DNA of 64,000 nt from an uncultured Acidobacteriota bacterium. GTDB lineage: Bacteria > Acidobacteriota > Thermoanaerobaculia > Multivoradales > UBA5704. The translations under genes were made by a program, and so were the position numbers. Each line of letters starts with the position of its first letter. The stretch's first letter is position 1. Of the stretch, positions 2,929-41,006 are shown piece by piece. The notes beneath the pieces were generated by a model. It was not told the DNA's origin. It saw only the letters and a program-made list of their open reading frames with translations, and did no database searches. The DNA lies in the NCBI GenBank assembly GCA_963770895.1, contig CAVYRF010000001.1, forward strand, positions 736,001 through 800,000, read 5' to 3'.

Positions 2929-2954
2929 GCGCCAAGCCCAGCGGGCGCGCATAT

Positions 2955-3197: not shown

Positions 3198-3259
3198 GTT
3201 GTGATTATGCAATACAAGTTTGTGTTGTCGGGTCATCAAGTCGCGCGCGGCGCGCGGCG

Positions 3260-3676
3260 TCAGCCGGCGCGGAGCAGCAGGACGGGGACGTTGACGCTGT
3301 GCTGGACGCGGTTGGCGGTGACGCCCAGGAAGAGGTCGGCCAGGAAGCGGTGGCCGTGGGTGCTCATGGCGACCAGGTCGCAGCCGCGTTCGCGGACCCA
3401 GCGGACGATTTCGGTGGCGGGGTCGCCGTAGGCCAGCTCGGCCTGGGCGGGGATGCCCAGGGCCTCGAATTCGACGCGGACGGCTTCCAGGTAGGCGGTG
3501 TCGTCGCGGATCTCGGGGCTCACGGCGTCGGGGCCGAAGGTGCGGGCGGCCCAGCCGGTGGCGACGTGCAACAGGACGATGCGGGCCTGGGTGAGCTGGG
3601 CCAGGGGCTTGACGTGCTCGATGATGGCGCGATCGCTCCTGGTGGTGTCGAGGGTGACGAGAATGCACTGATACAT
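3260..3676 (-). CDS. Universal stress protein (UspA family)
   Basis: MYQCILVTLD...GDPATEI...DLVAMSTHG...LGVTANRV...VPVLL; GGAGG RBS upstream of ATG 3676. Confidence 0.9.
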   Translation of the reverse strand: MYQCILVTLDTTRSDRAIIEHVKPLAQLTQARIVLLHVATGWAARTFGPDAVSPEIRDDTAYLEAVRVEFEALGIPAQAELAYGDPATEIVRWVRERGCDLVAMSTHGHRFLADLFLGVTANRVQHSVNVPVLLLRAG

Positions 3677-3695
3677 CGCCCCTCCTGCGCAGCCG

Positions 3696-3863
3696 TTAGT
3701 GGCCTGTCCTGGAGAATTCGAAAGCGGATGGCGCCGGCAATCGGCGGCGGGGGCCAGGCGCGCCGACGCAGGCATAGTCGGAACTATGTCGAGGAGGCGC
3801 AACGCCGCACCCGCCGTCGAGGGCAAGCCAGGCGCTTTCGAATTCTCCAGGACAGGCCACTAG
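3696..3863. mobile_element. 168-bp MITE/REP-like element, copy 1
   Basis: Perfect 30-bp terminal inverted repeat TAGTGGCCTGTCCTGGAGAATTCGAAAGCG (3697-3726 / 3833-3862); YTAG ends; an inverted second copy lies at 46080-46247. Confidence 0.8.
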
Positions 3864-3882
3864 TGTGCCGCCGCCATGGGAA

Positions 3883-5274
3883 TCAACCGGTGGGGCCGCC
3901 GGCGACGACCTGCCAGGCGGTCCTGAGGGCGTCGGGCAGGCCGTACAGGTCCATGGCGGTGATCAGCAGGGCGCTGGCCCAGCCGGCGCCGGTCAGCAGC
4001 CAACCGGTGCGCCAGGCGCCCATGCGCTGGCGCGAGGCGGTGAACCAGAGCAGCGGGAACATGGCGAAGGGCAGCTGCAGGGCCAGCACGACCTGGCTCA
4101 GGGTGAGCAGGTCGGTGACGCTGCGGTCGCCGTGCCAGGCGATGACTGCGACGGCGGGGACGATCGCGGCGCAGCGGGTGATCAGGCGCCGCAGCCAGGG
4201 CGACAGGCGCCAGTGCATGAAGCCTTCCATCACCACCTGGCCCGCCAGGGTGCCGGTGATGGTGCTGCTCTGGCCGCTGGCAAGCAGGGCGATGGCAAAG
4301 AGCGCGCTGGCGGCGAAGGTGCCCAAGAGCGGCGCCAGGGTGAGGAAGGCGATGCGGATCCAATCGCTGTCGGGGCGGAAGGCGACGACCTGGCCGCCGG
4401 CCAGGGTGACGCTGGCCTTGCCGAAAAAGACGGTGGCCGCCAGGACCAGGATGGCGGCGTTGACCAGGAACGCGACGCCCAGCGCCGCGGTCGAATCCAG
4501 GGTGTTGAAGCGAATCGCCTGCCGCATGGAGGCCTTGTCGCGCTGCAGCCGCCGGCTCTGCACCAGCGCCGAATGCAGGTAGAGATTGTGCGGCATGACG
4601 GTGGCGCCGATGATGCCGATGGCGACGTAGAGCATACCGCGCTGGCGCAGGCCGGGCGCCGCCAGGGCGCGTCCCATCTCCAGGAACTGGGGCCGCGTCG
4701 CGGGGAGCACGAAGATCTCGGTGAAATAGCAGATGCCGATGGTCGCCACCAGGACCAGGACCACCGCTTCGATGGTGCGCATGCCGAAGCGTTGCAGGCC
4801 GAGCAGCAGCAGGACGTCCAGGCCGGTGATCACCACGGCCCACAGCAGCGGCAGGTGAAACAGCAGGTTGATCGCCACGGCGCTGCCCAGCACCTCGGCC
4901 AGGTCGCAGGCGGCGATCGCCACTTCGCAGAACAGCCAGTTGGGCCAGCGGGTCCAGGGGGGGAGCCAGTCGCGGCTGCACTGCGCCAGGTCCTTGCCGG
5001 TGACGACGCCCAGGCGGGCGGCGATGACCTGCAGGAAGATCGCCATGACGCTGGCCAGGGCGACGACCCACAGCAGGCCGTACTTGAACTGCGCGCCGCC
5101 CTGCAGGTCGGTGCCCCAATTGCCGGGATCCATGTAGCCGACGCTGACCAGCAGCGCCGGTCCCGCGAACGCCCGCCAGTGCCGCCAGAAGCCCTGGTCG
5201 GCGCGCGGCACCGCGACGCTCGAATGGACCTCCTGCAACGATTGCGTGGCGGAGGGCGCCGAGGCGGGGCTCAT
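3883..5274 (-). CDS. mntH: Nramp-family divalent metal (Mn2+) transporter
   Basis: GYMDPGNW, GATVMPHNLYLHS and GQSSTITGTLAGQVVMEGF motifs. Start may be ATG 5274 or GTG 5292. Confidence 0.95.
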   Translation of the reverse strand: MSPASAPSATQSLQEVHSSVAVPRADQGFWRHWRAFAGPALLVSVGYMDPGNWGTDLQGGAQFKYGLLWVVALASVMAIFLQVIAARLGVVTGKDLAQCSRDWLPPWTRWPNWLFCEVAIAACDLAEVLGSAVAINLLFHLPLLWAVVITGLDVLLLLGLQRFGMRTIEAVVLVLVATIGICYFTEIFVLPATRPQFLEMGRALAAPGLRQRGMLYVAIGIIGATVMPHNLYLHSALVQSRRLQRDKASMRQAIRFNTLDSTAALGVAFLVNAAILVLAATVFFGKASVTLAGGQVVAFRPDSDWIRIAFLTLAPLLGTFAASALFAIALLASGQSSTITGTLAGQVVMEGFMHWRLSPWLRRLITRCAAIVPAVAVIAWHGDRSVTDLLTLSQVVLALQLPFAMFPLLWFTASRQRMGAWRTGWLLTGAGWASALLITAMDLYGLPDALRTAWQVVAGGPTG

Positions 5275-5283
5275 GTCGGATGT

Positions 5284-5297
5284 TTTGAGCACTCAAA
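5284..5297. promoter_or_regulatory. Candidate MntR operator
   Basis: Palindrome TTTGAG-CA-CTCAAA immediately upstream of mntH; minus-strand TTGACA about 30 bp further upstream. Confidence 0.55.
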
Positions 5298-5516
5298 GTA
5301 TTGAATCACAGGTACCCGAATTGTGTCAAAGCCCAGGTAGCAGGATGGTGACAGCTGCGCTTTCGGCGCTCGCCGCGCTCGCGCCGCGCCCGCCATCGTC
5401 TAGGATACGGGGCCTGGGCTTGTCGGGCAGCAAGGCCCGCCATCATGCGCTCCGCCCGGCGCGGCTTGCGCGCCGTCGCGGCAGCCTCAGATCGACCCGA
5501 TCAAGGAGAGAAAATC

Positions 5517-5897
5517 ATGGGAAACCCGTTCTGCCACGTTGAGCTGACCACGACCGACATGGACAAGGCCAAGAGCTTCTACACCGGCCTGTTCGATTGG
5601 AATCTCCAGGACGTGCCGATGGGTCCTGGCGGCAGCTACACCTTGATCGGCGTGGGCAAGGACAAGGCCGGCTGCGGTGGCGGCATGATGTCGATGCCGG
5701 GCGCCCCGACGGCGTGGATGGCCTACGTGCTGGTGGACGACGTCAAGGCGTCCACCGAAAAGGCCCGCTCGCTCGGTGCCACCATCGTCAAGGATGTGAT
5801 GGAGGTGCCGGGCGCCGGCTGGATGAGCATCATCACCGATCCGGGTGGTGCCACGCTCGGTCTCTGGGAAGCGAACCCGAACGCCCAGCAGTCCTGA
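5517..5897 (+). CDS. VOC/glyoxalase-bleomycin resistance family protein
   Basis: MGNPFCHVELTTTD..AKSFY..LFDW...WMAYVLVDDV...DPGGATLGLWE; AAGGAG RBS. Confidence 0.9.
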   Translation: MGNPFCHVELTTTDMDKAKSFYTGLFDWNLQDVPMGPGGSYTLIGVGKDKAGCGGGMMSMPGAPTAWMAYVLVDDVKASTEKARSLGATIVKDVMEVPGAGWMSIITDPGGATLGLWEANPNAQQS

Positions 5898-6085
5898 TCG
5901 CCCAACCTGCCGCCGGCGTGGCTAGTGAGCCGCCTGTACCCGGCGGCCGCGGACAAGCCAGAGCTGGTCGAGGGCAGGCCCGGCGCCAGCGGTTTTGCTG
6001 GTACAGGTCCCTGGTGCCCCGGTCGTCGGGGCACCGGGCGCCCGGTGGGCGGGGTCGGCCGCGGGGCGGGGCCGGCGGCGCGGTT

Positions 6086-6751
6086 TCAACCGGCGCTGCT
6101 GGCGTGGATGCGGCGGGCGGCGGCGGTGCCGACGACGACGGCCGGGTGGCCGGCGGCGCGCAGGGTCACGGCGTCGGCCACCGGGTCCAGGCGCTCGACC
6201 ACCACCTTGCGGCCCGGCACCAGGCCGTGCTCTTCGGCAAAGCGCAGAAACTGGCCGTCTTCGGATTCGACGCGCGCCACCTGCACTTCGCACCCCGGCT
6301 CGTAGTCGGCCAGGGTGCGGACGCGCAGCTGGACGACTTCCCCCGCGGCGTCGGGGATCGGGTCGCCGTGCGGGTCGGCGGTGGGGAAGTCCAGCACTTC
6401 GTCGATCCGCCGCAGGACCTTTTCGGAAACCGCGTGCTCGAGCACTTCGGCTTCTTCGTGCACTTCGCTCCAGTCGAGGCCCAGCACCCGCACCAGGAAC
6501 AGCTCCAGCAGGCGGTGGCGGCGCAGCACGTGCAGGGCGAGCTTTTCGCCGCTGCGCGTCAGCCGCACGCCGGTGCGCGGTTCGTAATAGACCAGGCGCG
6601 CTTCGTCGAGCGCCTTGACCATGCTGGTCACGGTGCCCGGCACGACTCCCATGAGGGTCGCCAGGCGGCCCAGCGGCACCAGGCGCTCGGGACAGCGCTG
6701 CTGTTCCATGTACAGGCGCTTGACGTAGTCCTCGACCGTGCTGGTGGGCAT
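6086..6751 (-). CDS. mntR: DtxR/MntR family metal-dependent repressor with C-terminal FeoA-like domain
   Basis: STVEDYVK, RRHRLLELFL, HEEAEVLEH and DPHGDPIP motifs; near mntH. Confidence 0.92.
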   Translation of the reverse strand: MPTSTVEDYVKRLYMEQQRCPERLVPLGRLATLMGVVPGTVTSMVKALDEARLVYYEPRTGVRLTRSGEKLALHVLRRHRLLELFLVRVLGLDWSEVHEEAEVLEHAVSEKVLRRIDEVLDFPTADPHGDPIPDAAGEVVQLRVRTLADYEPGCEVQVARVESEDGQFLRFAEEHGLVPGRKVVVERLDPVADAVTLRAAGHPAVVVGTAAARRIHASSAG

Positions 6752-6948
6752 TGCGGGGGGAGTCTACCAGGTAGGGTGGGAGTCGATTGCGTGCTTTCGA
6801 ACGGTGCGGCAGGCGGGGACATGGTATCATTTGCGCACATTCGACGGCCAGGTATTTGTCGCCGCCGAGCCGCTGTAGTACCTTAGTACCCAATGGCGAA
6901 AATGCTGGTGCCTCGGTGGGTCGTGCGACGGGTCAAGGTCACCGCGCA

Positions 6949-7707
6949 ATGAAGACCGTGTCCCGCCTGCTGTCCGTCGCCGCCTACGGCCTGGTGCGAC
7001 CGTGGATGCGGCGCCGGGTGGGCCGGACGGTGCTCGAATCGATCGATGGCGTGCCGCTGGTGGTGTTGCCCCAGGTGCTCAACCCGCGCGTCTTCCGCAC
7101 CGGCGCCTGGCTGGCGCAGGCGGTGCCGCCGGCTGCCGCGCCGGCGGCCACCCGCCGCGCTCTCGACATGGGCACCGGCTCGGGCATCGGCGCCATCTTC
7201 GCCGCCCGCCGCGGCTATCGCGTGACGGCGCTCGACATCAATCCCCACGCCGTCCGGTGCGCTCGCGTGAACGCCCTGCTCAACGGCCTGGACCAGCAGA
7301 TCGACGTGCGGCAGAGCGACCTGTTCGACGCCGTCGCCGGCGAACGCTTCGACCTGGTGCTGTTCAATCCGCCATTTTTCCCCGGCACGCCGCGCGATCC
7401 GCTGGACGCGGCCTGGCGCAGCCACGACGTCATCGAGCGCTTCACCGCCGGCCTGCCCGCGGCGCTGGCGCCGGGAGGGTCGGCCCTGCTGCTGCTGTCC
7501 AGCGCCGGCGGCTCCGACAGCAAGCTCCTGGCCCACGTCCCCGCCCAGCTGCGCGTCGCGCCGGTCTTCCGCCGCGGCTTTGCCGGCGAAACGATCACGC
7601 TCTTTGCCGCCACCTGGGTCCCCGCCGCCAGCGCCAGCGCGGCCCAGGCCGGCGCCGCCCGGCCGCTGGCGGCGCCCGCGCTGTCCTCCGTGGAGGTGAT
7701 GCGATGA
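6949..7707 (+). CDS. HemK/PrmC-like class I SAM methyltransferase
   Basis: LDMGTGSG motif I and FNPPF motif IV (amine N-methyltransferase type); stop overlaps the next ATG (ATGA). Confidence 0.88.
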   Translation: MKTVSRLLSVAAYGLVRPWMRRRVGRTVLESIDGVPLVVLPQVLNPRVFRTGAWLAQAVPPAAAPAATRRALDMGTGSGIGAIFAARRGYRVTALDINPHAVRCARVNALLNGLDQQIDVRQSDLFDAVAGERFDLVLFNPPFFPGTPRDPLDAAWRSHDVIERFTAGLPAALAPGGSALLLLSSAGGSDSKLLAHVPAQLRVAPVFRRGFAGETITLFAATWVPAASASAAQAGAARPLAAPALSSVEVMR

Positions 7708-9296
7708 GCGCCAGCGTTGCCTCGGCAGGCGTGTCGGGCGCGGCGGCGGGCCGCCAGCGGGTGCTGCTGGTCAATCCGCGCATGTGCTCGCGCCGCTCGA
7801 TGCGCCTGCCGCTGTCGCTGCTGTCGCTGGGTTCGGTCCTGGAAGGGCGCTACGACTACCAGCTGATCGACGGCAATGTCGATCCCGACGCCATCGGCAC
7901 CGCGCTCGCCGCGCTGGCGCAAGGCGACCATGCAATGGTGGGGGTGAGCGTCATGCCGGGGCCGCAGGTGGGGCCGGCGATCGCGCTGTCCACCGCGGTG
8001 CGCGCGCACTTCCCGCAGGTGCCGATCGCCTGGGGCGGGTACTTCCCGACCCTCTACCCGGATTCGGCGATCAACGCTTCGTACGTCGACTACGTGGTGC
8101 GCGGCCAGGGCGAAGAAACCCTGCTGGAGCTGCTGGCGCGGCTGCCCGACGCCGGGCCGCCGGCGCCGCCATCCGACTCGGCTGCCGACGCCGGCGCCCT
8201 GGCCGGCCTGGCGGGCCTGACCTTCAAGCACGACGCCGAAGTGCGGCACAACGCCGACCGCCACTTCAAGCCGCCGGACGACCTGCCGCCGCTGCCCTAC
8301 CAGCGCCTGGCCGACGTCACGCCCTACCTGCGCCCGACGTTCATGGGGGCGCGCACCGGCGTGCACCAGGCGGCCCTGGGCTGCCGCTATCGCTGCAGCT
8401 TCTGCGGCGTCGTCACGATGTTCAACGGCGTCACCCGCCTGCAGGGAGCGTCGCGCCTGGCGCAGGCGGTGACGACGCTGCGCGACAAGTACGGCGCCGA
8501 CTCGATGCAGTACTACGACAACAATTTCTTCGACCGCGAAGAGAGCAGCGTGCCGCTGCTCGAAGAGCTCGCCCGCCTGCAATCGCCCTGGTGGTGCTAT
8601 GCGCGCGCCGACACCATGGCGGGCTTTTCGACCCGCACCTGGGAGCTCATCCGCCAGAGCCGCATGCGCATGGCCTACATCGGCGCCGAAGCGGGGAGCG
8701 ACGCGGCGCTGCGCCAGATGAAAAAGGGGTCGCGCGTCGAAGACACGTTGGAGGTCGCGCGCCTGTGCCGCGCCTACGGCGTGGTGCCCGAGCTGTCGTT
8801 CGTGCTCGGCGGCCCCGACGATCCCGAAGGCGAGGTCGAGCACACCCTGAGCTTCATCAAGCGCATCAAGCAGATCCACCCCACCTGCGAAGTCGTGCTG
8901 TACTTCTACAGCCCGACGCCGCGGCGGGAAGCCGCGTCAGAGGCGACGCGGGCCAGCGGCCTGCGCCTGCCGGTGATGGACAACTACGGCCCGGACGGCC
9001 CGCCGCTGCCGACGACGCCGCTCGAATGGACCGAGCGCAAGTGGATCGACTACGTGTGCCACCAGGACGCGCCCTGGCTGTCGCCGCGCCTGCGCCGCCG
9101 CGTGCGCGACTTCGCGACCGTGCTCGGCTGCCGTTTCCCGACCGTGCAGGACGCCAAGACCCCGGACTGGGGCAAGGCGATCCTGCGCAACCTGTCCCGC
9201 TGGCGCTACAGCAGCGGCCTCTACGGCAGCCCCTGGGAGCTGGAGCTGGCCCGGCGCCTGGTGCCCTTGCGCCAGCCGCAGCGCGAAAGCCTGTGA
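7704..9296 (+). CDS. Cobalamin-dependent radical SAM enzyme 1
   Basis: N-terminal B12-binding domain (LLVNP..PLSLL..WGGYFPT..RGQGE), CRYRCSFC, YDNNF, GAEAGS. Confidence 0.92.
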   Translation: MSASVASAGVSGAAAGRQRVLLVNPRMCSRRSMRLPLSLLSLGSVLEGRYDYQLIDGNVDPDAIGTALAALAQGDHAMVGVSVMPGPQVGPAIALSTAVRAHFPQVPIAWGGYFPTLYPDSAINASYVDYVVRGQGEETLLELLARLPDAGPPAPPSDSAADAGALAGLAGLTFKHDAEVRHNADRHFKPPDDLPPLPYQRLADVTPYLRPTFMGARTGVHQAALGCRYRCSFCGVVTMFNGVTRLQGASRLAQAVTTLRDKYGADSMQYYDNNFFDREESSVPLLEELARLQSPWWCYARADTMAGFSTRTWELIRQSRMRMAYIGAEAGSDAALRQMKKGSRVEDTLEVARLCRAYGVVPELSFVLGGPDDPEGEVEHTLSFIKRIKQIHPTCEVVLYFYSPTPRREAASEATRASGLRLPVMDNYGPDGPPLPTTPLEWTERKWIDYVCHQDAPWLSPRLRRRVRDFATVLGCRFPTVQDAKTPDWGKAILRNLSRWRYSSGLYGSPWELELARRLVPLRQPQRESL

Positions 9297-11017
9297 CGGA
9301 CACCCAGCCCGACAGGCTGCCGGCAGCGAAGCTGCCGCTGCGGCACGGCGCCTATGCGTGGCAGACGCGCTGGCGCCCCGGCGAGCTCGCCACCGCCCGC
9401 TTCATGCCCATGGGCCTCCACCTGGAGCTGGTCACCAACAGCCCGCCCCTCCTGGCTGCCGCCCGCCAGTGCTTCGGCGGCTACGGCGAGCCGGCGCCAG
9501 ACCGCCCCGTCGATCTCACCCTGAGGCTCTACCAGCACTCCGTCGACGCGCCGGCGCCAGGCGCTGGCGTCGCTACGACCGCCGCTACGTCCGGCCACCT
9601 CGCCACGGCAACGGCCGCCGCCGCCAACCCGGCCGGCACCGCCGGCCTCCCCGACCTGGCCAACACCGCCAACCCCGCCGACCAGGGGTTCAACGGGGGC
9701 AGCGTCGCGGCGATCCACCCAGTGAGGGCGGCTGCCCTCCCGGAGGCCGGGCCGCCCGGCGCCGCCACGTCCGGCAGCTGTGTCGCCGCAACCGCCGCCG
9801 GCGCCACCCCCGGCTCCGTCGCTGCAACCGCCATCCACGCCTCGACGACCGGCAACGCCGCTGCTGCAACCGCCATCGGCGCCGCCATGTCTGGCAGCTC
9901 TAGCGCAGCAACCGCTGCCGACGCTACGACCGGCAACTCCGCTGCTGCAGCCGCCATCGGCGCCGCCATGTCTGGCAGCTCTAGCGCAGCAACCGCTGCC
10001 GACGCTACGACCGGCAACTCCGCTGCTGCAGCCGCCATCGGCGCCGCCATGTCTGGCAGCTCCGTCGCCGCAACCGCTGCCGACGCTACGACCGGCAGCT
10101 CCAGTGCCGCAACCGCTGCCGACGCTACGACCGGCAGCTCTAGTGCAGCAACCGCTGGCGACGCCACGACCGGCAGCTCCGTCGCCGCCACCTCACCTGT
10201 CGCCGCGATGGCTGGTGCCGCCGCCGGCGGCCGGGACGTGCATTTCTTTGACGGCGGCGCCGCCGGCGCGCCGCTGTCCGCGCCGATCCTGCGCTGCGAG
10301 GGTCCGTATCTCTACCAGGCCAGCGGGTCTGACACGGTGATGGTGGCCGACCGCGGCGCCGGGGTCACCTTCGGCTACCTGGCCGCAGCGACCGTGGCCG
10401 ATGCAGCGCACCTCACCTGGCACTACCTGTGGCCGGCGGTTTCCTATCACCTGGAATGCCGCGGTTTTGCCGGAGTGCACGCCGCCGCCATCGCGCGGCG
10501 AGGCCGCGGGCTGCTGCTGCGCGGCCGCAGCGGCCAGGGCAAGACGACGCTCACCTATGCGGCCACCCGTCGCGGCTGGCAGGCCGTCAGCGAAGACATC
10601 GTATGGGTGGACGCCCGCGGCGCCACCTGGTGGGGCTCGCCCTGGACCTTCCACCTGCTGCCGGACGCCCGCCAGCTCTTTTCCGAGTTGAGCGGGCGCG
10701 GCGTCGCCCTGCAGCCCAACGGCGAAGTCAAAGTGGTGGTCGACATGGAATCCCTCTGGCCCGGCAGCACCCTGCCCAAGGCCGCGGCCGGCCCGGTGGT
10801 CATCCTGGAGCGCCGCCATGGCGGCACCAGCAGCCTGGTCACCCTCGACCCGGCCACAGCGCACCACGAATGGCTGGACGGCTGCGCCCGCCACGAGCGC
10901 CAGGCCCCCGGCTACGACCAGACGGTGGCGGACCTGCTCAGCAGAGGTTGCCACCGCCTCCACCTGGGAGACGACCTGGACGGCGCCCTGGACCTGTTGG
11001 AGCCGCTCCTGCCATGA
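9293..11017 (+). CDS. HPr kinase-related P-loop kinase with a long Ala/Ser/Thr repeat insertion
   Basis: VHAAAI...GLLLRGRSGQGKTTL...VSEDIV matches the HprK-like signature (H...GxSGxGKT...DD/ED); GTGA overlap with the upstream stop. Confidence 0.8.
   Translation: MTDTQPDRLPAAKLPLRHGAYAWQTRWRPGELATARFMPMGLHLELVTNSPPLLAAARQCFGGYGEPAPDRPVDLTLRLYQHSVDAPAPGAGVATTAATSGHLATATAAAANPAGTAGLPDLANTANPADQGFNGGSVAAIHPVRAAALPEAGPPGAATSGSCVAATAAGATPGSVAATAIHASTTGNAAAATAIGAAMSGSSSAATAADATTGNSAAAAAIGAAMSGSSSAATAADATTGNSAAAAAIGAAMSGSSVAATAADATTGSSSAATAADATTGSSSAATAGDATTGSSVAATSPVAAMAGAAAGGRDVHFFDGGAAGAPLSAPILRCEGPYLYQASGSDTVMVADRGAGVTFGYLAAATVADAAHLTWHYLWPAVSYHLECRGFAGVHAAAIARRGRGLLLRGRSGQGKTTLTYAATRRGWQAVSEDIVWVDARGATWWGSPWTFHLLPDARQLFSELSGRGVALQPNGEVKVVVDMESLWPGSTLPKAAAGPVVILERRHGGTSSLVTLDPATAHHEWLDGCARHERQAPGYDQTVADLLSRGCHRLHLGDDLDGALDLLEPLLP
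9770..10200 (+). repeat. Intragenic tandem repeat (81-bp and 39-bp units)
   Basis: TTGNSAAAAAIGAAMSGSSSAATAADA about 3 times, then TTGSSSAATAADA about 3 times; near-identical at DNA level. Confidence 0.85.
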
Positions 11018-12201
11018 CGCTCGAAGCAATCGCGGACCAGGAGGCTACACCGCCTGCCGCCGCCGCCGCTGCCGGCGGGTCGCCTTCCGCCGCCGTCGCC
11101 GGTGGCGAGCCGCCACCCGGCGCTGCAGGAGACGCCGGGCGTCTGGCGTGGATGTGCGAGCGGCTGGCCGTTTGGGTGGTCGCCCCGCCGCCGCAGCCGC
11201 CGCCGGCGTGGCCGGCCGCGGCGTGGGAGGACTTTCGTGCCGCCACGCAGGTCCACGGCGTCGGCCCGCTGCTGGGGCGGCGCCTGGGCGACCGCCAGCC
11301 ATGGTCGCAGGCGGCAGCCTGGCTTGGCGCCGAGCATGCCGCCAACCGCTTGCGCGTCGAGCGTCTGCACCAGGACTTGCGCGCGATCCTGGCGCGCTTT
11401 GCCGCCGCGGACGTGCCGCTCATGCCGCTCAAGGGCGCGGTGCTGGGGCCGCTCTATTATTCCGACCCCGCGGAGCGGCCAATGGCCGACCTGGACCTGC
11501 TGGTGCGCGCCGAAACGCTGGCGCAGAGCGCCCAGCTGCTGGTCGACATCGGCTATGAGGTGGTCTTTGAAGGCCGCAAACACGTCAAGCTGGCGCCGCG
11601 CGGCGGCCGTCGCCGCCCGGTCAGCGACGCCGGCGGCGCCAGCGACGGCGACGTTGGCGCCGACGCCGGTGGTAGCCCCGGCCCCGGCCCCGGCGACCAC
11701 GAGGCGGCCGGCGAGCACCCCGACAACCCGCGCTGGGTCGAGCTGCATCCGGCCTGCGGCGAATGGCTGGGGGACGAGCGCATCGATCTGACCGGCCCGA
11801 TCTGGGCCGGCGCCCGCCGGCAGCCGCTGCTGGGCGAGCCGGCCTGGCTGCCCGACCCGGCGACCCATTGGCTCTACCTGTTGGTGCATGCCACCCACCA
11901 CATCCTGATCAATCGCTTCCGTCTCATCCAGCTGCTCGACCTGCTGCTGCTTTGCCCGACGGACCTGTTGGGCGCCGCCCTCCAGGTCGAGCCGCCCGCC
12001 GCCGCGGCCGCCATGGCGCGCGCCCTGTACCCGCCTCTCGCGCTCCTCCAACGGTACTTCCCGGCGGGCGCCACCGCCGCCGCGACGGCCCTGCGCCAGG
12101 ACTTGCGCGCGCGGCTGGCGCCCGGCTACGCGGCCTGGGCCGACGGCCTGGACCTGTTCCAGGCTTGCTATCTCGACGCCGCGCCGTGGAGGGCGCCATG
12201 A
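11014..12201 (+). CDS. Uncharacterised nucleotidyltransferase (NTP_transf_5-like)
   Basis: PLKGAVL..YY...ERPMADLDLLV...VELH...LLVHATHH...LLDL; ATGA overlap. Confidence 0.85.
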   Translation: MTLEAIADQEATPPAAAAAAGGSPSAAVAGGEPPPGAAGDAGRLAWMCERLAVWVVAPPPQPPPAWPAAAWEDFRAATQVHGVGPLLGRRLGDRQPWSQAAAWLGAEHAANRLRVERLHQDLRAILARFAAADVPLMPLKGAVLGPLYYSDPAERPMADLDLLVRAETLAQSAQLLVDIGYEVVFEGRKHVKLAPRGGRRRPVSDAGGASDGDVGADAGGSPGPGPGDHEAAGEHPDNPRWVELHPACGEWLGDERIDLTGPIWAGARRQPLLGEPAWLPDPATHWLYLLVHATHHILINRFRLIQLLDLLLLCPTDLLGAALQVEPPAAAAAMARALYPPLALLQRYFPAGATAAATALRQDLRARLAPGYAAWADGLDLFQACYLDAAPWRAP

Positions 12202-12385
12202 GCGAGCCTGGCGCCGTCAGCGAGCCGGGCACCGTCGGCGAGCAGGGTGCCGTCAGCGAGCCGGGCGCCGCCAGCGAGCCGGGCACCGTCAGCGAGCAGG
12301 GCGCCGTCAGCGGGCCGGGCGCGGTCAGAGCGCGGGGCGCCGTCAGTGGGCCGCGCGGCATGAGCGGTCAAGGCGCCATGAGCGA
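12198..12385 (+). repeat. 18-bp tandem repeat, about 10 degenerate copies
   Basis: agcgagc(c/a)gggc(g/a)ccgtc units encoding SEPGAV/SEPGTV/SEQGAV. Confidence 0.8.
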
Positions 12386-13628
12386 GCGCCCGGTGGTGGT
12401 GGTGGTGGGCGACGCCGTGGCGCCCACCGGCTTCGCGCGCGTGCTGCACAGCATTCTGGGGCGGCTCGCCGACCGTTACGAGTTCCATCACCTGGGGGTC
12501 AACTACGGCGGCCAGCCGCACGAGCACGCCTGGCAGATCTATCCCGCGGACGGCGGCGGCGACCTGCACGGCGTGCGGCGCGTGCGCGACCTGGTGGAAA
12601 AGGTGCGGCCCCGCCTCGTCTTCCTGCTCAACGACCCCTGGCTGATGGGCGGCTACCTCGACGCCTTGGGCGATTGCCGCGCCGGCATCAAGGTGATCGC
12701 CTACGCGCCGGTCGACGCCGGCCCGCTGGAGGCGGAGCTGGTGGCGCCGCTCACCGGCCTGGATCACCTGGTGCTCTATACCCGCTACGGCCTGCAGGAA
12801 ATGGAGGCGTCGGCGGCGCAGCTGCGCCGCCTGCGCCCCGACGCGGCCGCCTTCCCGGCGCTGTCGGTCGTGCCGCACGGCGTCGATTCGGACCTCTTCC
12901 GCCCGCTCGCCGGCCCGCCCACGGCGGCGGCGCCCGGCGACTTTGCCGCCTCCCGCGCCGCGGCGCGCCGCCAGCTGTTCGTCGACCCGGCGCTGCACGA
13001 CGCCTGGATCGTCTTGAACGCCAACCGCAACCAGCCGCGCAAGCGCATCGACGCGACGATCAAGGGCTTCGCGCTCTTTGCGCGCGACAAGCCGCCCAAC
13101 GTCCGCCTCTACCTGCACATGGGGATGGTCGATTGCGGCTGGAACGTGGTCGCCCTGGCGCGCCGTCACGGCATCGAAGACCGGCTCATCCTGACCGCCG
13201 AGGAGCACTTCCTGCCGGCGGTCGCCGACGATCTGCTCAACCAGATCTACAACGCCTGCGACGTGGGCATCAACACCTCCCTGGGCGAGGGCTGGGGCCT
13301 GGTCAACCTGGAGCACGCCGCCACCGGCGCCGCCCAGGTGGTGCCCCGCCACAGCGCCTGCGCCGAGATCTGGGACGGCGCCGCCGAGCTCGTCGAGCCC
13401 GTCGCCAGCCTCACCATGGAAGGCCTGCTGACCGAAGGCCGCCTGGTCGGCCCCGAAGGGGTCGCCCGCGCCCTCGATCGCCTGTACACCGATCCCTCCC
13501 ACCTGCGCCGGCTGTCCGCCGCCGCCTACCAGGTCGCCACCCGCCCCGAATACCGCTGGGACGACGTCGCCCGCCGCTGGGACGATCTCTTCCAGCAGAT
13601 GCTGGCGGCCACCCCCACTGCCGTCTGA
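12198..13628 (+). CDS. GT-B glycosyltransferase (GT4-like) with N-terminal SEPGAV repeats
   Basis: GDAVAPTGFARV, NANRNQPRKRID and NTSLGEGWGLVNLEHAATG (EX7E motif). Confidence 0.88.
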   Translation: MSEPGAVSEPGTVGEQGAVSEPGAASEPGTVSEQGAVSGPGAVRARGAVSGPRGMSGQGAMSERPVVVVVGDAVAPTGFARVLHSILGRLADRYEFHHLGVNYGGQPHEHAWQIYPADGGGDLHGVRRVRDLVEKVRPRLVFLLNDPWLMGGYLDALGDCRAGIKVIAYAPVDAGPLEAELVAPLTGLDHLVLYTRYGLQEMEASAAQLRRLRPDAAAFPALSVVPHGVDSDLFRPLAGPPTAAAPGDFAASRAAARRQLFVDPALHDAWIVLNANRNQPRKRIDATIKGFALFARDKPPNVRLYLHMGMVDCGWNVVALARRHGIEDRLILTAEEHFLPAVADDLLNQIYNACDVGINTSLGEGWGLVNLEHAATGAAQVVPRHSACAEIWDGAAELVEPVASLTMEGLLTEGRLVGPEGVARALDRLYTDPSHLRRLSAAAYQVATRPEYRWDDVARRWDDLFQQMLAATPTAV

Positions 13629-13672
13629 GAAAATCGCCGTTGATCTGACCCGCTACCACCGCCCCAGACCAC

Positions 13673-13702
13673 TAGACGTGCGATCGGGGGGCGTGGTATC
13701 TT
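13673..13702 (+). promoter_or_regulatory. Candidate sigma70 promoter of the 101-aa protein gene
   Basis: TAGACG-18-TATCTT with an extended -10 TG; GAGGAGG RBS at 13752-13758. Confidence 0.45.
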
Positions 13703-13763
13703 CTAAAACAAGCAGACCAATGTCGTCCTTCGATCCTGTTTGGATGGGGGAGAGGAGGTAAGC

Positions 13764-14069
13764 GTGGCGATTACGGTTGTCAATCAGTCGGTCGGTGCTC
13801 TGTCCTATACCGTGTTCGGCGGCTCGACTTCGGGTTCGGGCACGGGCGGGTCGGGCAGCAAGGGTTCGGGAACCACGGGCTCCGGTACCCACGGCTCGGG
13901 CGGCGGCTCGGGTGTCGTGGCTTCGGGCGTCGTCGGTCCGGGTGGCACCGCGTCCGGGATCCAGGTGGGTGCAGGCTCCTATACCGTGGTCTTCGGGTGG
14001 AAAACCTTCCCCAGCTACACGGTTTCGGCCTCGGGTGTGGTCAAGGTGACGACGACCGTCCAGCCGTAG
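13764..14069 (+). CDS. 101-aa Gly/Ser/Thr/Val-rich protein; candidate substrate or precursor of the cluster
   Basis: GTG start 5 nt after GAGGAGG; six GSG units; SYTV three times; no Asp, Glu, Cys or Arg. Confidence 0.8.
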   Translation: MAITVVNQSVGALSYTVFGGSTSGSGTGGSGSKGSGTTGSGTHGSGGGSGVVASGVVGPGGTASGIQVGAGSYTVVFGWKTFPSYTVSASGVVKVTTTVQP

Positions 14070-14101
14070 CGCGTTCCGAACGGTTGCCAGCGCGGCGCGG
14101 C

Positions 14102-15136
14102 GTGTCCAGACCTTCGCTGTTCGTCGTCTCGCTGCCGCGCTCTCTTTCGACGCTGCTCTACCACGCGATCCGCCAATCGCTGGCGTTGCGTGAGCCGCAG
14201 TGGACGACGGACGGGGAGATCCTCAACGTCCGTCGCTTTGCCTTTCTGGCGGAGGAGGGCGCGGTCGAGGGGGTGCGCTACGTCCAGCGCGATCACGACG
14301 GGCCGCGCTTCGCGAAGCTCCTGGCCTTCCTCGACCAGGTGACCCAGGCTCAAGGCTTTGCCTACAAAGACGTCATCCAGCCCTTCGTCGTCGGCGAATG
14401 GCTGGCGCGCCAGAGCGCTCCGCCGGTGGGCGTGAACCGGCCCGCTGCAGCGGCCTCCTCCTCAGCCGCTGCCGAAGGCGCCACCGCCGCTGCGGCCGCC
14501 GCCGAGCGGCGCCGCTCGGCGTCATCGCCGAACAGCCCCGCACGCCCCACACCAGCGGCGCCAGCCCCCGCGGCCGTCTCTGCCTCCAGCGCTGCGGCAC
14601 CCGCCCCGCGCGTCCTGGTCATCGACCGGCCGGTGCCTGACGTGGCCGCCTCGTTGCTCGATCGCGGCTGGCTGTATCCAGCGCTGGCCGCCGACGGCGC
14701 GGCGGCGCTTCCAGAGGCCGCGCGCGCGGTGGTCGCCGGTGCCCACACCGCCGACCTGTCGGCATTCCTCCCGCCCGACCAGGTGGAACGGGCGCTGGTG
14801 TCCGGCTTGCTGCGCGCCCGCCGGACCCTGGCCCGCCTGGCGGACCCGCCCCCGGCATGCGCCAGCCGGTGGGTGGTCTACGACCAGCTGATCCACGACG
14901 AAGCGCCCTTGCATCAGGCCTTGCAGGCGCTCTACGGCGAAGACGTCCCGCCGCCCGCCTATCTGGACGACGAGTTCTGTCGCCAGCGCGATCAGGTGCT
15001 GCGCCGCCGCGCCAGCCCGCTCTACCAGCGCCTGCAGGCGCTCAGCGACGAGCTGGCGACCACGATGCTGGCCGCGCCGCCGGCCGCCGCCATCGGCGCC
15101 GGCGTCGCCGCGGCGCCACGGCGCCGCACGCAGTAG
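14102..15136 (+). CDS. Sulfotransferase-like P-loop protein
   Basis: N-terminal LFVVSLPRSLST resembles the 5'-PAPS-binding motif (GxPRSGT); later RPVPDVAAS and YDQLI match the sulfotransferase layout. Confidence 0.55.
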   Translation: MSRPSLFVVSLPRSLSTLLYHAIRQSLALREPQWTTDGEILNVRRFAFLAEEGAVEGVRYVQRDHDGPRFAKLLAFLDQVTQAQGFAYKDVIQPFVVGEWLARQSAPPVGVNRPAAAASSSAAAEGATAAAAAAERRRSASSPNSPARPTPAAPAPAAVSASSAAAPAPRVLVIDRPVPDVAASLLDRGWLYPALAADGAAALPEAARAVVAGAHTADLSAFLPPDQVERALVSGLLRARRTLARLADPPPACASRWVVYDQLIHDEAPLHQALQALYGEDVPPPAYLDDEFCRQRDQVLRRRASPLYQRLQALSDELATTMLAAPPAAAIGAGVAAAPRRRTQ

Positions 15137-15160
15137 CCACCTGCAACACGCTCCGCTCAC

Positions 15161-15341
15161 CGCTCGCCTTCACGGCTCGCGGTTCGCCACCTGCCTCTTG
15201 CGGTTCGCCGCTCGCCCTTCACGGCCCGCGGTTCGCCACCCGCCTCTTGCGGTTCGCCGCTCGCCTTCACGGCTCGCGGTTCGCCACCCGCCGGTTGCGG
15301 TTCGCCGTTGCCGCGGCTCGCGGTTCGCCACCCGCCGGCGG
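15161..15341. repeat. Intergenic tandem repeat, ~48-bp unit, about 3.7 copies
   Basis: Unit cgctcgccttcacggctcgcggttcgccacc(t/c)gcctcttgcggttcgc; seven copies of GCGGTTCGCC; lies between convergent genes. Confidence 0.85.
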
Positions 15342-15375
15342 CCTTCGACTGGCGGCCTGAGAGGGCGCCGGCGGA

Positions 15376-16800
15376 TCAGGACAGGCGTTGTGCCGGGCGC
15401 AGGAAGTTGGCGACCTGCTTTTCGATCGGGGCGGCGTAAAAGTCGCGGTCGCAGCGCCAGCGGGCCAGCGCGCGCAGCGGCCGGCTCCAGGGTCGGCCGG
15501 AATCCCAGGCCAGCTGCTGGAAGAATTTGAAGCGCTCGATCAGCCGGTACTTTTCGGGCGACACCCACGGACCGATCGAGCCCACGAAGTCAAATTCGCT
15601 CCATTCGTCCAGCGTGCAGGGGAGGGTGAAGCCGGCGGCCACCGCGTTCTGGGTGATCGAGGTGCCGGGATAGGGTTTGAAATAGAAAATCGGCGTCTGG
15701 AAGTCGGGGCTCATGGCGCGCAGCCGCTTGACCACCTGCAGGGTGGCGCGCACGTTGTCCTCGGTCTCTTCCGGGAAGCCGACGATGAAGGGGAAGTTGA
15801 CCGCCACGCCGAACTTGCGACAGCGCTCGGCGACAAAAAAGACCTGCTCCAGCTTGATGTCTTTTTTGATGCGATCCATCATTTCCTGCGAGCCCGATTC
15901 GACGCCGACCAGCAGGCGGCGCAGCCCCGAGCGCTTGCACTTGGCGAAGACCTCTTCGCTCATGCGCTGGCCCTGGTCGGCGCGCATGGTGGCGGCCCAG
16001 GTGATGGGGAGCTTGCGGCGGATGAGCTCTTCGGCGACCGCTTCGACGCGCTGGGCGTAGGTGAAAAAGGTTTCGTCCTGGAAGTTCACGTCGTCGTAGC
16101 GCGAGCGGTGCCACAGCGCTTCGAGCTCTTCGCCCATGCGCTCGGGCGACAGGCCGGTCCACTTGCGCTGGTAGACGAACGGATCGGCGCAAAAGGCGCA
16201 GCGGAAAGCGCACCCCTGCGACGAGATGTAATCCAGCTGGCGCTTGCCCTTGAGGCGATAGTACGGTTCGATGTCGATCAGGCCGTAGTTGTGGACCGCC
16301 AGGGTGTTGACGTCGGCCAGCGGGCGGGCCGTGTTCACCTGCGCGGCGCCGTCCTCGCGGTAGGTGCAACCCTGGCAGCCGGTCAGTGGCCGCCCTTCAG
16401 CCAGGCGCTCGACGATCTCGGCAAAGGTGATTTCCCCCTGGCCTTGCACGGTCACGTCGACGCTCGGTTCCGCCAGGCATTCGCGGCCGAACATCGACGG
16501 GTGCCAGCCGCCCCAGACGACCGGCAGGTCGGCGCGGCTGGCCTTGGCGGCGCGGCTGGCCGCAACCGCGTCGGCGATCGGCGCCCCGGTGAGCACCGTG
16601 ACGCCCAGGCAGAGCGCGCCTTCCAGCTCCGCCACCAGGGCGCGGTGTGCCGCTTCGGGGTTTTTGGCCAACCGGGCGTCCACGACCACCACCTGGTAGC
16701 GCTCGGGATCGAGGTGCGATCCGATGGTGAGCAGCGCCAGCGGCATGGTGTAAAAGACCGCGGTCGGGTTGTACAGCACGATTTTGTGGCGGCGACTCAT
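15376..16800 (-). CDS. Cobalamin-dependent radical SAM enzyme 2
   Basis: IVLYNP..MPLALL..WGGWHPS..GQGE, CAFRCAFC, QDETF, GVESGS. Confidence 0.92.
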   Translation of the reverse strand: MSRRHKIVLYNPTAVFYTMPLALLTIGSHLDPERYQVVVVDARLAKNPEAAHRALVAELEGALCLGVTVLTGAPIADAVAASRAAKASRADLPVVWGGWHPSMFGRECLAEPSVDVTVQGQGEITFAEIVERLAEGRPLTGCQGCTYREDGAAQVNTARPLADVNTLAVHNYGLIDIEPYYRLKGKRQLDYISSQGCAFRCAFCADPFVYQRKWTGLSPERMGEELEALWHRSRYDDVNFQDETFFTYAQRVEAVAEELIRRKLPITWAATMRADQGQRMSEEVFAKCKRSGLRRLLVGVESGSQEMMDRIKKDIKLEQVFFVAERCRKFGVAVNFPFIVGFPEETEDNVRATLQVVKRLRAMSPDFQTPIFYFKPYPGTSITQNAVAAGFTLPCTLDEWSEFDFVGSIGPWVSPEKYRLIERFKFFQQLAWDSGRPWSRPLRALARWRCDRDFYAAPIEKQVANFLRPAQRLS

Positions 16801-17879
16801 AAGGGCTCCGGGGTCAATGCCAGCGTGCAGACGCATTTGCGACAGATCGCATCGCGGTCGGTGTCCAGGCCGCGGCGCCAGGCGAGCGCCTGCGGCGAAT
16901 TGACGATCGCGTCCAGGCTTGCCGCCTGCCGCAGGTTGCCGAGCGGCGGCTGGAAGAAGCACGGCCGCACCGTGCCGTCGGCTTCGATCACCGTCGACAC
17001 CCACGGCGCGTTGCAGCGATGCGGCGGAAAATCGCCGTGGCCGCACAGTGCGGCGTAGTAGTCGTAGAGCCGCGCCCGCAGCTTCGCCGCGCCCTCGACG
17101 ATGAAGCCGGATGCGAAGTCGGCCGCGTGCTCGCGTTCCAGGGCGTCCAGCTCGCCGGCCAGCCGCGGCAGCTCCTCTTCGAGCAGCGCCACCTGGCCGG
17201 CGCGCGCCGCTTCCCAGGGCTGCGGCCGGTTGAAGGCGTCGCTGCTGACGTCGGCGGCCAGCAGGCTCAACCAGTTCAGGCCGATCGCGCGGGCCGCCGT
17301 GACGGTGCCGCGCAGGTGGGCGAAGTTGGCCCGCTGGACGGTGCAGCGCCCGCCGATCGTCAGCTGAGGCGCGGCTTGGCGCACCGCCGCCACCCCGTCG
17401 GCCAGCTTGGCGAAAGCGCGCGGCAGGTTGCGGATGTGATCGTGCACGGGCTGCGGCCCGTCCAGGCTGACGATCACTTCGGAGCAGTAGGCGGCGACCT
17501 GGGTCGCGTCGCGCCGCAGCAGCAGACCGGTGGACAGCAGGGTGATCGCGATGCCGGCGCGCCGCAGGTGCTCGCACATCTCCCACAGGTTGCGGTGCAG
17601 CAGCGCTTCGCCGCCCGACAGCGCGACCTGGCGCACCCCCATGCGCTGCCATTCGGCAACCCACTGTGCCACCTCGGCCGCGCCCAGCTCCTGCTTGCCC
17701 GGATCGCGCCAGATGTCGCACATCAGGCAGCGGCAGTTGCAGCGGCTGTGCGGGAACAGGATGACGATCGGCAGCCGCTCGACCGGTTGGGGCCGCGGCA
17801 ACCCGTCGGCCGCCCCGCCGCTCCACGCGTTGGCCGGCAGCTCGGCGGCCGGCAGCACCGGAAGCACGGTCGAGCTCAC
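16797..17879 (-). CDS. Radical SAM protein with C-terminal SPASM/twitch-type domain
   Basis: CNCRCLMC, SGGEALL, VSLDG; C-terminal CNAPW...ADGTVRPCFF...CRKCVC. Confidence 0.9.
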   Translation of the reverse strand: MSSTVLPVLPAAELPANAWSGGAADGLPRPQPVERLPIVILFPHSRCNCRCLMCDIWRDPGKQELGAAEVAQWVAEWQRMGVRQVALSGGEALLHRNLWEMCEHLRRAGIAITLLSTGLLLRRDATQVAAYCSEVIVSLDGPQPVHDHIRNLPRAFAKLADGVAAVRQAAPQLTIGGRCTVQRANFAHLRGTVTAARAIGLNWLSLLAADVSSDAFNRPQPWEAARAGQVALLEEELPRLAGELDALEREHAADFASGFIVEGAAKLRARLYDYYAALCGHGDFPPHRCNAPWVSTVIEADGTVRPCFFQPPLGNLRQAASLDAIVNSPQALAWRRGLDTDRDAICRKCVCTLALTPEPL

Positions 17880-28546: not shown

Positions 28547-28652
28547 TGTGTCACCACCGGCCGCGCGCTTGGCACCCAGCGCCGCCGCCCGGCGCCGCCA
28601 GCGGTGGCGATCCGCCGTCGCCACCCTCGCCGCCGGCGCGCGGCGCGCTGGT

Positions 28653-32787: not shown

Positions 32788-32800
32788 AAGGAGGTTGCTT

Positions 32801-40892: not shown

Positions 40893-41006
40893 GCCTGGGC
40901 CGCTCGCTGCGATCGGGCTGAGGGGATTGCAGCGGCCGCTTCGTTGTCATGGCTGCGGCACGACTGTGGTGCGATCACGCCCCAGCCAGACAAAGAGAGC
41001 CCCCAT

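Follow-up and report, generated by a model that had tools for sequence, protein, structure and literature searches.

The window analyzed in this work is a stretch of 64,000 nucleotides (nt) from an uncultured Acidobacteriota bacterium (GenBank assembly GCA_963770895.1, contig CAVYRF010000001.1, positions 736,001 to 800,000 of the forward strand). An earlier reading made from the letters of this stretch (hereafter, the sequence-only reading) had pointed to a small open reading frame (ORF) for a protein of 101 amino acids (aa) with a Ser-Gly repeat tract, flanked by genes for a glycosyltransferase (GT) and a sulfotransferase-like protein. We found that this small ORF is a genuine gene within a conserved cassette of at least six genes, and its product may be the dedicated substrate of the enzymes encoded beside it. 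The elements of the cassette in the window are as follows.

7704 to 9296, plus strand: B12-binding radical S-adenosylmethionine (SAM) enzyme, encoded by the first of the conserved cassette genes (ATG at 7704; PF02310, 6.8e-13; PF04055, 2.5e-11)
9404 to 11017, plus strand: HprK-like P-loop kinase (Hpr_kinase_C, E 0.0016; HprK_rel_B, 1.6e-07; HprK_rel_A, 4.7e-07)
11014 to 12201, plus strand: NTP_transf_5 nucleotidyltransferase (PF14907, 2.4e-30, above the cut-off; start overlaps the kinase stop)
12198 to 13628, plus strand: GT4-type (GT1/GT4) glycosyltransferase (PF13692, 1.8e-07; PF00534, 2.2e-07; ATG at 12198 overlaps the NTP_transf_5 stop)
13629 to 13763, no strand: spacer upstream of the small gene, 135 nt, the largest intergenic gap within the cassette
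13764 to 14069, plus strand: small protein gene (GTG start at 13764, TAG stop at 14067-14069; 101 codons, 101 aa)
13824 to 13913, plus strand: Ser-Gly tract, residues 21-50 of the small protein (six GSG units; lies between strands 2 and 3 and is predicted to be a disordered loop)
14102 to 15136, plus strand: divergent sulfotransferase-fold protein, 344 aa (assigned by fold, fusion, and ESM Atlas)

Because the window is rich in G+C (71.6%) and crowded with many spurious long ORFs, the reality of the small gene needed testing. A search of a 5.8-billion-protein collection found 37 homologues (82-101 aa; E 2e-47 to 4e-14), all of them unnamed or labeled 'hypothetical'. Among 185,579 species genomes scanned, two true loci were found, namely, L001 in an Acidobacteriota metagenome-assembled genome (MAG) and L002 in a Thermoanaerobaculia MAG, the contig of which ends inside the radical SAM gene. 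The three pairwise codon alignments of the window, L001, and L002 copies gave ratios of nonsynonymous to synonymous substitution rates (dN/dS) of 0.35, 0.33, and 0.21. For the same copies, the ratio of synonymous to nonsynonymous differences (pS/pN) was 2.1-4.5 in the annotated frame and did not exceed approximately 1 in the antisense frame or in either shifted frame. G+C content was highest at the third codon position (GC3) in all three, and six-frame profile searches found one copy per locus with no paralogue. The homologues have a common N-terminus, M/V-A-I-T-I/V-V-N-Q-S (alignment A1), which fixes the start codon. The small ORF is a genuine conserved gene that is under purifying selection in its own frame only, and the call made in the sequence-only reading was sound on this point.

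These results also bear on the explanation that the small gene is unrelated to its neighbors or is an annotation artifact of a GC-rich genome. Such an explanation is invited by the abundance of spurious ORFs, by the antisense frame of the small gene, which is likewise open in all three loci, and by the small protein having no assigned family or function. However, the selection confined to the annotated frame, the GC3 pattern, the conserved start position and ribosome-binding site (RBS), the full length of the 37 homologues, and the same flanking genes in three of three loci all argue against it. We consider this explanation very improbable and largely refuted.

The cassette has the same gene order on one strand in all three loci: B12-binding radical SAM enzyme, HprK-like kinase, NTP_transf_5 protein, GT4-type GT, small protein, and sulfotransferase-like protein. 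Compared with the window by BLAST, the radical SAM enzyme is 54% identical in L001 (5221-6627) and 48-53% in the pieces found in L002, the HprK-like protein is 51% identical in both loci, the NTP_transf_5 protein 46-48% in both, the GT 66% (L001) and 67% (L002), and the small protein 54% (L001) and 46% (L002). The sulfotransferase-like protein has 34-37% identity by BLAST and 53-54% in alignment A2; the BLAST figure is lower because of inserts in the window copy, which appear as gaps in A2. In the window, the cassette is tightly packed, with overlapping start and stop codons at 7704, 11014, and 12198 and only 32 nt between the small gene and the gene at 14102. The small gene sits between the same two genes, those for the GT and the sulfotransferase-like protein, in every locus. 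The sequence-only reading had proposed a three-gene module of GT, small protein, and sulfotransferase, to be checked by looking for homologues of the small gene next to homologues of its neighbors. The trio was indeed found together in all three loci for which context is available, but the unit is larger, with at least six genes that include those for the radical SAM enzyme, the HprK-like kinase, and the NTP_transf_5 protein.

For the metagenomic homologues, co-occurrence was judged by a proxy, in which 'longest contig' values were compared by eye across three hit tables. By this measure, 11 of the 37 small-protein matches share a value with a match to the sulfotransferase-like protein (5) or the GT (8), and 20 of the 37 are on contigs shorter than 3 kb, too short for neighbors. 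Where relatives of the GT or of the sulfotransferase-like protein are named, they belong to Thermoanaerobaculia, a class of Acidobacteriota, and to Pyrinomonadaceae.

The small gene has a strong RBS, as the sequence-only reading had stated, with GAGGAGG at 13752-13758 located 5 nt upstream of the GTG. The spacers at the same place are 78 nt in L001 and 77 nt in L002, each with a GGAGG-type RBS. In all three loci, the one sizeable spacer of the operon lies directly before the small gene, which carries a strong RBS for itself. The alignment of these spacers (A4) shows conservation of the RBS and a few blocks and of nothing else. A candidate promoter of its own had also been proposed for the small gene and found no support, with zero sigma-70 promoter sites and zero intrinsic terminators in 13400-15400 by a consensus scan that leaves other promoter types uncovered. 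The predicted RNA fold of the spacer is neither significant nor conserved (z of -0.93, +1.38, and +0.90), and no Rfam family matched anywhere in the window.

Script counts reproduced each of the motif figures of the sequence-only reading, with six GSG units at residues 24, 29, 34, 39, 44, and 48 (spacing mostly 5), SYTV at residues 14, 72, and 84, and ASG[VI] at residues 53, 63, and 89. The protein has 26 Gly, 17 Val, 17 Ser, and 14 Thr residues, and none of Asp, Glu, Cys, or Arg. On inspection, its N-terminus has no signal-like features, with no basic n-region and with predicted beta strands instead. At the DNA level, the Ser-Gly tract has a weak 15-nt periodicity (13832-13870). Pfam, NCBIfam, and PADLOC searches with the small protein gave zero family matches, ESM Atlas returned only unnamed clusters at 0.81-0.85, which is under the usable score, and tblastn against plasmids found no match to the small protein or to the sulfotransferase-like protein.

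In alignment A1, 28 columns are invariant across the 38 sequences, and these are clustered in the N-terminal 26 residues (I3, T4, N7, Q8, S9, V10, Y15, F18, G19, G20, S21, S23, G24, and G26) and the C-terminal half (S49, G50, S54, G55, T74, V75, V76, F77, W79, P83, Y85, S88, G91, and T97). Between these conserved ends, the Ser-Gly tract differs in length and sequence among members. A profile search of 1.84 billion representatives (E<=1e-3) found 19 proteins, 11 of which are short relatives (61-116 aa) with tracts that use other SG-bearing units, namely, PSGSGVI, GSGTN, and GSGVGSSK repeats. By script, the stretch from strand 2 to the S[YF]TVVF strand contains 7-16 SG dipeptides in 46 of 47 family members (P0126 was unparsed and left out), so the homologues do keep the Ser-Gly region that the sequence-only reading had described. 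Across the whole family, Ser and Gly account for 20% each, Val for 14%, and Thr for 9%, and there are almost no charged residues. The family comprises proteins of about 82-116 aa, lies outside Pfam and NCBIfam, and has the Ser-Gly region as its hallmark.

With A1 as input, AlphaFold2 predicted six strands (residues 2-5, 13-19, 51-57, 72-77, 84-88, and 92-95) with a mean predicted local distance difference test score (pLDDT) of 60.5, and the pLDDT of residues 22-48 was below 50. Foldseek searches of the model against the Protein Data Bank (PDB) gave weak matches to transthyretin-type beta-sandwiches (E 0.02-0.07; template modeling (TM) score 0.5-0.58). The other 8 of the 19 representative matches are surface proteins of 880-2601 aa with Ig-like, PKD, or Calx-beta repeats (E 2.7e-11 to 7.2e-04), and these come via the C-terminal half of the family profile. 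By hhalign, the last 50 residues are placed on the final strands of the Ig-like domain PF16403, a weak match (E 0.0028, probability 11%). The small protein is probably a small beta-sandwich, perhaps Ig-like, with a long flexible Ser-Gly loop, although this fold remains tentative; the sequence-only reading had suggested a beta-sandwich with a disordered GSG loop, to be checked by structure prediction. Located in a disordered loop between strands, the Ser-Gly tract would be exposed to enzymes.

A fold of this type can be read in another way. The small protein may be an accessory rather than a substrate (an Ig-like binding, scaffold, or carrier domain), with a glycan or lipid as the true acceptor; the enzymes would then make or modify a saccharide that bears phosphate, sulfate, or methyl groups, and the Ser-Gly region would be merely a flexible loop. 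The surface-protein matches of the C-terminal half of the profile (8 of 19) and the predicted beta-sandwich with its transthyretin-like resemblance are consistent with such a role. However, the retention of SG-richness in 46 of 47 members despite sequence drift is more in keeping with an array of modification sites than with a neutral loop, and the strong RBS and spacer that the small gene has for itself are often seen with substrate genes.

One further candidate from the genome scan, L003 in a Clostridia MAG, was dropped from the counts, being a short motif match only (residues 12-59, 37% identity). Its 2906-aa protein (908-9628) bears LSYTIFGGSTSG, which is near-identical to the conserved junction of strand 2 and the loop in the small-protein family and is probably a chance occurrence or a common strand-turn motif.

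The enzymes encoded upstream of the small gene have intact catalytic motifs. The B12-binding radical SAM enzyme has CxxxCxxC, and its NCBIfam matches are all far under their cut-offs. In the HprK-like protein, a GxxGxGK[ST] loop is followed by an ED pair, and both are kept in the alignment of the window and L001. In the NTP_transf_5 protein, G141, D159, and D161 (PLKG...ADLD) are invariant in all three loci. Searches of PDB sequences with the HprK-like and NTP_transf_5 proteins returned nothing meaningful. The upstream GT named in the sequence-only reading was borne out by its two Pfam matches, and its E-x7-E stretch is identical in the window and L001. Its family has 2876 matches at E<=1e-30, and the best 120 are all at least 52% identical. 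The start of the GT is ambiguous (12198 or 12378) because a repeat separates the NTP_transf_5 stop from the conserved part of the GT; the alternative ATG at 12378 would give 416 aa, which is in line with most homologues (395-481 aa, mostly about 405-430 aa).

Several of these genes contain tandem repeats. The repeat in the GT gene is 18 nt x 9.3 (12191-12357) and encodes GAVSEP-type hexapeptides. The HprK-like gene has repeats of 81 nt x 4.2 (9845-10181), 39 nt x 10.8 (9763-10192), and 27 nt x 2.3 (9621-9683); together (9621-10192) these encode an Ala/Thr/Ser-rich low-complexity insert of approximately 230 aa, which is absent from the L001 orthologue.

One more gene on the same strand lies directly upstream of the radical SAM gene, and its membership in the cassette is uncertain, as L001 carries a different methyltransferase at this position.

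6787 to 7707, plus strand: MTS-type methyltransferase (PF05175, 7.7e-16; PADLOC mad2, 2.5e-25)

A reading of these genes as a defense system was considered and dropped. The GT4-conflict match was weak (E 0.0043), and PADLOC gave only an AbiEii-like match for the nucleotidyltransferase (E 3e-04) and the methyltransferase match of this upstream gene.

The protein encoded downstream of the small gene has a sulfotransferase P-loop fold, as judged from the predicted structure. Family searches gave zero Pfam or NCBIfam matches, and PF13469 and PF00685 did not match even at E<=10; the assignment made in the sequence-only reading is upheld by fold and by fusion instead. The protein has 73 homologues, with that of the window included. 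AlphaFold2 with the 74-row alignment gave a pLDDT of 90.6, and the first 10 Foldseek matches in the PDB are all sulfotransferases, albeit weak ones (E 1.4e-03 to 8e-03; TM score 0.41-0.48), led by human TPST1 with bound peptide, tick TPST, and the curacin sulfotransferase domain. The matches to TPST1/2, tick TPST, and the curacin domain span E 1.4e-03 to 1e-02 and TM scores of 0.44-0.48, and further down the same list there are P-loop kinases as well. In ESM Atlas, the nearest named clusters are sulfotransferases (0.95-0.96). A profile search of the PDB with this family found no sulfotransferase, only a chance coiled-coil match (E 0.43).

A metagenomic protein of 561 aa (P0081) is a fusion of a Sulfotransfer_3 domain (4e-31) with a domain of the sulfotransferase-like family (47% identity), a hint that this domain cooperates with an active sulfotransferase. 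Comparison of the family with the true Sulfotransfer_3 domain of P0081 by hhalign (E 0.016) gave the register PRSLSS/PRSGTS, WTxxGE/WTIGQE, YKD/EKT, and R..VADVAYAML/RDPRETISSML. R20, E46, K96, and R120 (L001 numbering) are invariant or nearly so in the family, and their spacing along the chain resembles that of what we take to be the catalytic Arg/Glu/Lys/Arg of TPST2. The window copy has Ala/Pro/Ser-rich inserts (approximately 14400-14650 and 14720-14800) that add about 100 residues and are absent from the 231-aa orthologues in L001 and L002. When the sulfotransferase-like protein (A3) and the small protein (A5) were co-folded, the scores were 0.18 and 0.01, relative to a mark of 0.32, and these values were used neither for nor against binding.

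Downstream of the cassette, the window has a convergent string of genes for radical SAM enzymes and a methyltransferase.

15376 to 16800, minus strand: B12-binding radical SAM enzyme (Pfam/NCBIfam)
16797 to 18218, minus strand: ORF for a radical SAM/SPASM enzyme (Pfam/NCBIfam; no counterpart in L001 or L002)
17876 to 19288, minus strand: ORF for a SAM methyltransferase (44% identical to L001 4387-4680)
18868 to 20265 and 20267 to 21847, minus strand: two B12-binding radical SAM enzymes (Pfam/NCBIfam)

Of these convergent genes, the methyltransferase alone has an equivalent in the L001 cassette, where it lies just upstream. The other radical SAM genes on this strand match only the single B12-binding radical SAM enzyme of L001 (25-28%), and the remaining flanks of L001 had no other match to the window. 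The minus-strand string (15376 to 21847) is possibly associated with the cassette. It is followed on the same strand by an unassigned 562-aa ORF (22137-23822) and by polysaccharide genes (24433-29543) for a deacetylase, a GT4, a Wzx-type flippase, and a GT2. From 15376 to 29543, the entire string may constitute a locus for a polysaccharide or lipid that is tailored by radical SAM enzymes.

The remaining regions of the window have other features. The 3' part of a nonribosomal peptide synthetase-like gene is located at the window edge (1-2925; AMP-binding, 2.9e-90; PP-binding; Thioesterase). A 473-aa protein (32795-34213) has a Peptidase_S74 domain (2.1e-11), which is the intramolecular chaperone of endosialidase and tail-fiber proteins and is unusual outside phage tail fibers. 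Three genes adjoin one another at 36439-41939; their products are a caspase-domain protein of 868 aa (Peptidase_C14), a protein of 616 aa with no assignment, and a Peptidase_A4 protease of the scytalidoglutamic type.

The abundance of B12-binding radical SAM enzymes raises the explanation that the small protein is the cleaved precursor of a peptide that is ribosomally synthesized and then modified post-translationally (RiPP), with either a proteusin-like C-methylated core or a double-glycine leader followed by an SG-rich core. Proteusins are polytheonamide-type RiPPs with C-methylation by B12-binding radical SAM enzymes. The small protein is like them in being Val/Thr/Gly-rich, nearly uncharged, and encoded beside such enzymes, one of which is always in the cassette, and the window has four together with the radical SAM/SPASM enzyme. 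Sub-threshold matches of these enzymes to models of RiPP C-methyltransferases (such as rSAM_ocin_1, 8.2e-19, and ApyD, 4e-35), the S/G/V/T-rich composition of the family, and the invariant F18, G19, G20, and S21 (FGG, then S) point in the same direction. However, the scores of the same enzymes against models for lipids and hopanoids are as high or higher, and L001 does not share the additional radical SAM genes of the window. Pfam and NCBIfam searches found no nitrile-hydratase-like (NHLP), Nif11, or other leader-family match, and both termini are conserved as predicted strands of one fold, which is unlike a leader with a variable core. Family scans also found no lasso cyclase, leader peptidase, PqqD-like protein, or peptide exporter in or beside the window cassette, and the conserved cassette is without a protease, C39-ABC exporter, RiPP recognition element/PqqD, lasso cyclase, or epimerase. 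The sequence-only reading had offered a RiPP precursor of the proteusin type as its second option; with the defining leader absent by family match and no conserved epimerase, this option did not hold up, and we consider a cleaved precursor improbable. Cleavage of a double-glycine leader at FGG/S was rejected in its own right, as the window has no C39-peptidase match: its sole ABC transporter adjoins LpxB and has only ABC-transporter and related ATPase domains.

For the combination of kinase and nucleotidyltransferase, the closest known system is the tailoring of lasso peptides such as paeninodin and pseudomycoidin. According to two papers, HprK-family kinases (PsmK/PadeK) phosphorylate a peptide Ser in lasso-peptide clusters (PMC6993621; PMC8498205), and PsmN, a 'putative uncharacterized NTP transferase', is needed for the addition of one or two hexoses to that phosphate, its D134A/D136A mutant being inactive (PMC6993621). 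Some such clusters are accompanied by putative sulfotransferase genes (PMC8498205; PMC6993621). This pair is the only experimental precedent that we found for action on a peptide serine, and by analogy the cassette is most like it, with an HprK-like gene next to a nucleotidyltransferase gene and a ribosomal product that bears Ser. For the small protein as an accessory, this is an opposing point, since the only characterized pair of an HprK homologue and an NTP transferase that we found acts on a peptide serine (PMC6993621).

The cassette is not a lasso system, because the cyclase, protease, and C-terminal Ser are absent. Unlike lasso systems, it is without Asn_synthase (the cyclase), a transglutaminase-like/B1/B2 protease, PqqD, and an ABC exporter; the sole Asn_synthase of the window, 30 kb from the cassette, belongs to a GATase-fused enzyme of 737 aa. 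Its putative acceptor is a folded protein of approximately 90-100 aa with many internal Ser-Gly sites, in contrast to the C-terminal Ser of a 20-aa lasso peptide, and it adds a conserved GT4, a B12-binding radical SAM enzyme, and a sulfotransferase-fold protein. Full-text searches, with subscription-only papers outside their scope, found no published description of the cassette family itself, only the lasso precedent.

Two other systems offer partial parallels. In the serine-rich-repeat (SRR) glycoproteins of Gram-positive bacteria, Ser-rich repeats are O-glycosylated by the GT4 system GtfA/GtfB. These proteins are very large, secreted by accessory Sec, and wall-anchored, and a catalytically degenerate partner assists the transferase. 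The cassette is similar in that a GT4 gene adjoins a gene for a protein with Ser-rich repeats, and by analogy the sulfotransferase-like protein might take the role of the degenerate partner. Unlike SRR systems, it has the kinase/nucleotidyltransferase pair, and family scans of the window found no GtfB-like or accessory Sec genes. In serglycin-type cores and Leishmania proteophosphoglycans, Ser-Gly or Ser-rich runs carry dense O-linked (phospho)glycans, with sulfation in proteoglycans. The small protein resembles such cores in its Ser-Gly repeats, and this resemblance is compositional only. Unlike these cores, it has no acidic flanks and, on inspection, no signal peptide, its transferase is of GT1/GT4 rather than GT14 (xylosyltransferase) type, and its setting is bacterial and cytoplasmic. 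Pfam, NCBIfam, and the representative profile search detected no homology to proteoglycan cores. The analogy to proteoglycans that had been drawn in the sequence-only reading thus does not extend beyond composition.

Taking these results together, we favor the small protein as a dedicated substrate of the cassette, the Ser-Gly loop of which would receive phosphate, (phospho)glycosyl groups, and possibly sulfate or methyl groups, and we assign this model a probability of roughly one half. Our confidence in any single chemical step is much less than that in the model as a whole. In this model, the HprK-like kinase would phosphorylate serines of the loop, and the NTP_transf_5 protein would attach a sugar to those phosphates, resulting in phosphoglycosylation similar to that by PsmK/PsmN in pseudomycoidin. 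The GT4-type enzyme may add or extend O-linked sugars, and the sulfotransferase-fold protein may sulfate the glycan or Tyr/Ser, or serve as a substrate-binding pseudo-enzyme. Methyl groups may come from the B12-binding radical SAM enzyme. What would result is an uncharged mini-glycoprotein of Acidobacteriota, made in the cytoplasm and heavily decorated.

Several points weigh against this model. We infer the acceptor role, the modified residues, and every chemical step from the gene neighborhood. The HprK-like matches are weak (18.5 bits, for a cut-off of 33.3, and about 30 bits, for a cut-off of 200), and the likeness of PsmN to the PF14907 protein of the window is one of description. The characterized kinases act on a C-terminal Ser (PMC8498205), whereas in the small-protein family a conserved strand is followed by a C-terminal P, K, T, S, or G (A1); a different specificity must therefore be assumed. 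In the sulfotransferase-like protein, the loop PRSLS[ST] is near-invariant in 74 sequences and has Leu in place of the Gly of the 3'-phosphoadenosine-5'-phosphosulfate (PAPS) loop, so that, with no sulfotransferase Pfam match, the protein may be inactive. Family scans of the window and L001 found no exporter or protease for the cassette. The families of the GT (2876) and the sulfotransferase-like protein (73) exceed that of the small protein (37; 19 among 1.84 billion representatives), and these enzymes may therefore also work without it. Within the small-protein family, P0111 (61 aa) has only two SG dipeptides and is without the tract, and the L002 copy (4695-4925) lacks 13 residues of the C-terminal strands (VVFGW...YTV). 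This gap resembles a deletion between two S[YF]T repeats and could be a true variant or an assembly artifact. Finally, the window cassette abuts a polysaccharide operon, and its enzymes could therefore act on a glycan instead.

The last of these points are also those that add to the case for an accessory role of the small protein. The larger enzyme families, the variants without the tract (P0111) or the strand pair (L002), and the convergence of the window cassette on an operon with a flippase, GT2, GT4, and deacetylase are all consistent with enzymes that have a glycan or lipid as acceptor. However, the polysaccharide genes are not conserved beside the cassette in L001 or L002. Together with the retention of the Ser-Gly array and the precedent on peptide serine, this leads us to regard an accessory role as rather unlikely.

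Regardless of which molecule is the acceptor, the Ser-Gly-loop mini-protein and the sulfotransferase-fold protein with a non-canonical cofactor loop are two unannotated families. If the small protein proves to be an accessory, the finding would amount to no more than a small domain family, newly described, within an operon for glycan tailoring. If it is the acceptor, the cassette would represent dedicated multi-enzyme phosphoglycosylation, perhaps with sulfation, of a folded bacterial protein on a Ser-Gly array, a chemistry that is documented in bacteria so far only on the C-terminal serine of lasso peptides. The HprK-like/NTP_transf_5 gene pair is widespread and poorly understood, and the cassette would give it a second tractable substrate. 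The most novel form of this model is a 'bacterial proteophosphoglycan', that is, a free-standing Ig-like mini-protein with a Ser-Gly loop that is phosphorylated at multiple sites by the HprK-like kinase, capped with sugars via phosphodiesters by the NTP_transf_5 protein, extended by the GT4-type enzyme, sulfated by a non-canonical sulfotransferase, and methylated by the B12-binding radical SAM enzyme. This form is possible yet doubtful; if true, it would be a new class of ribosomal, densely decorated protein, for which the lasso tailoring pair was borrowed to act on a folded substrate. For Acidobacteriota, which are abundant and hard-to-cultivate soil bacteria, modification of the small protein by its cassette would point to a surface or storage glycoconjugate.

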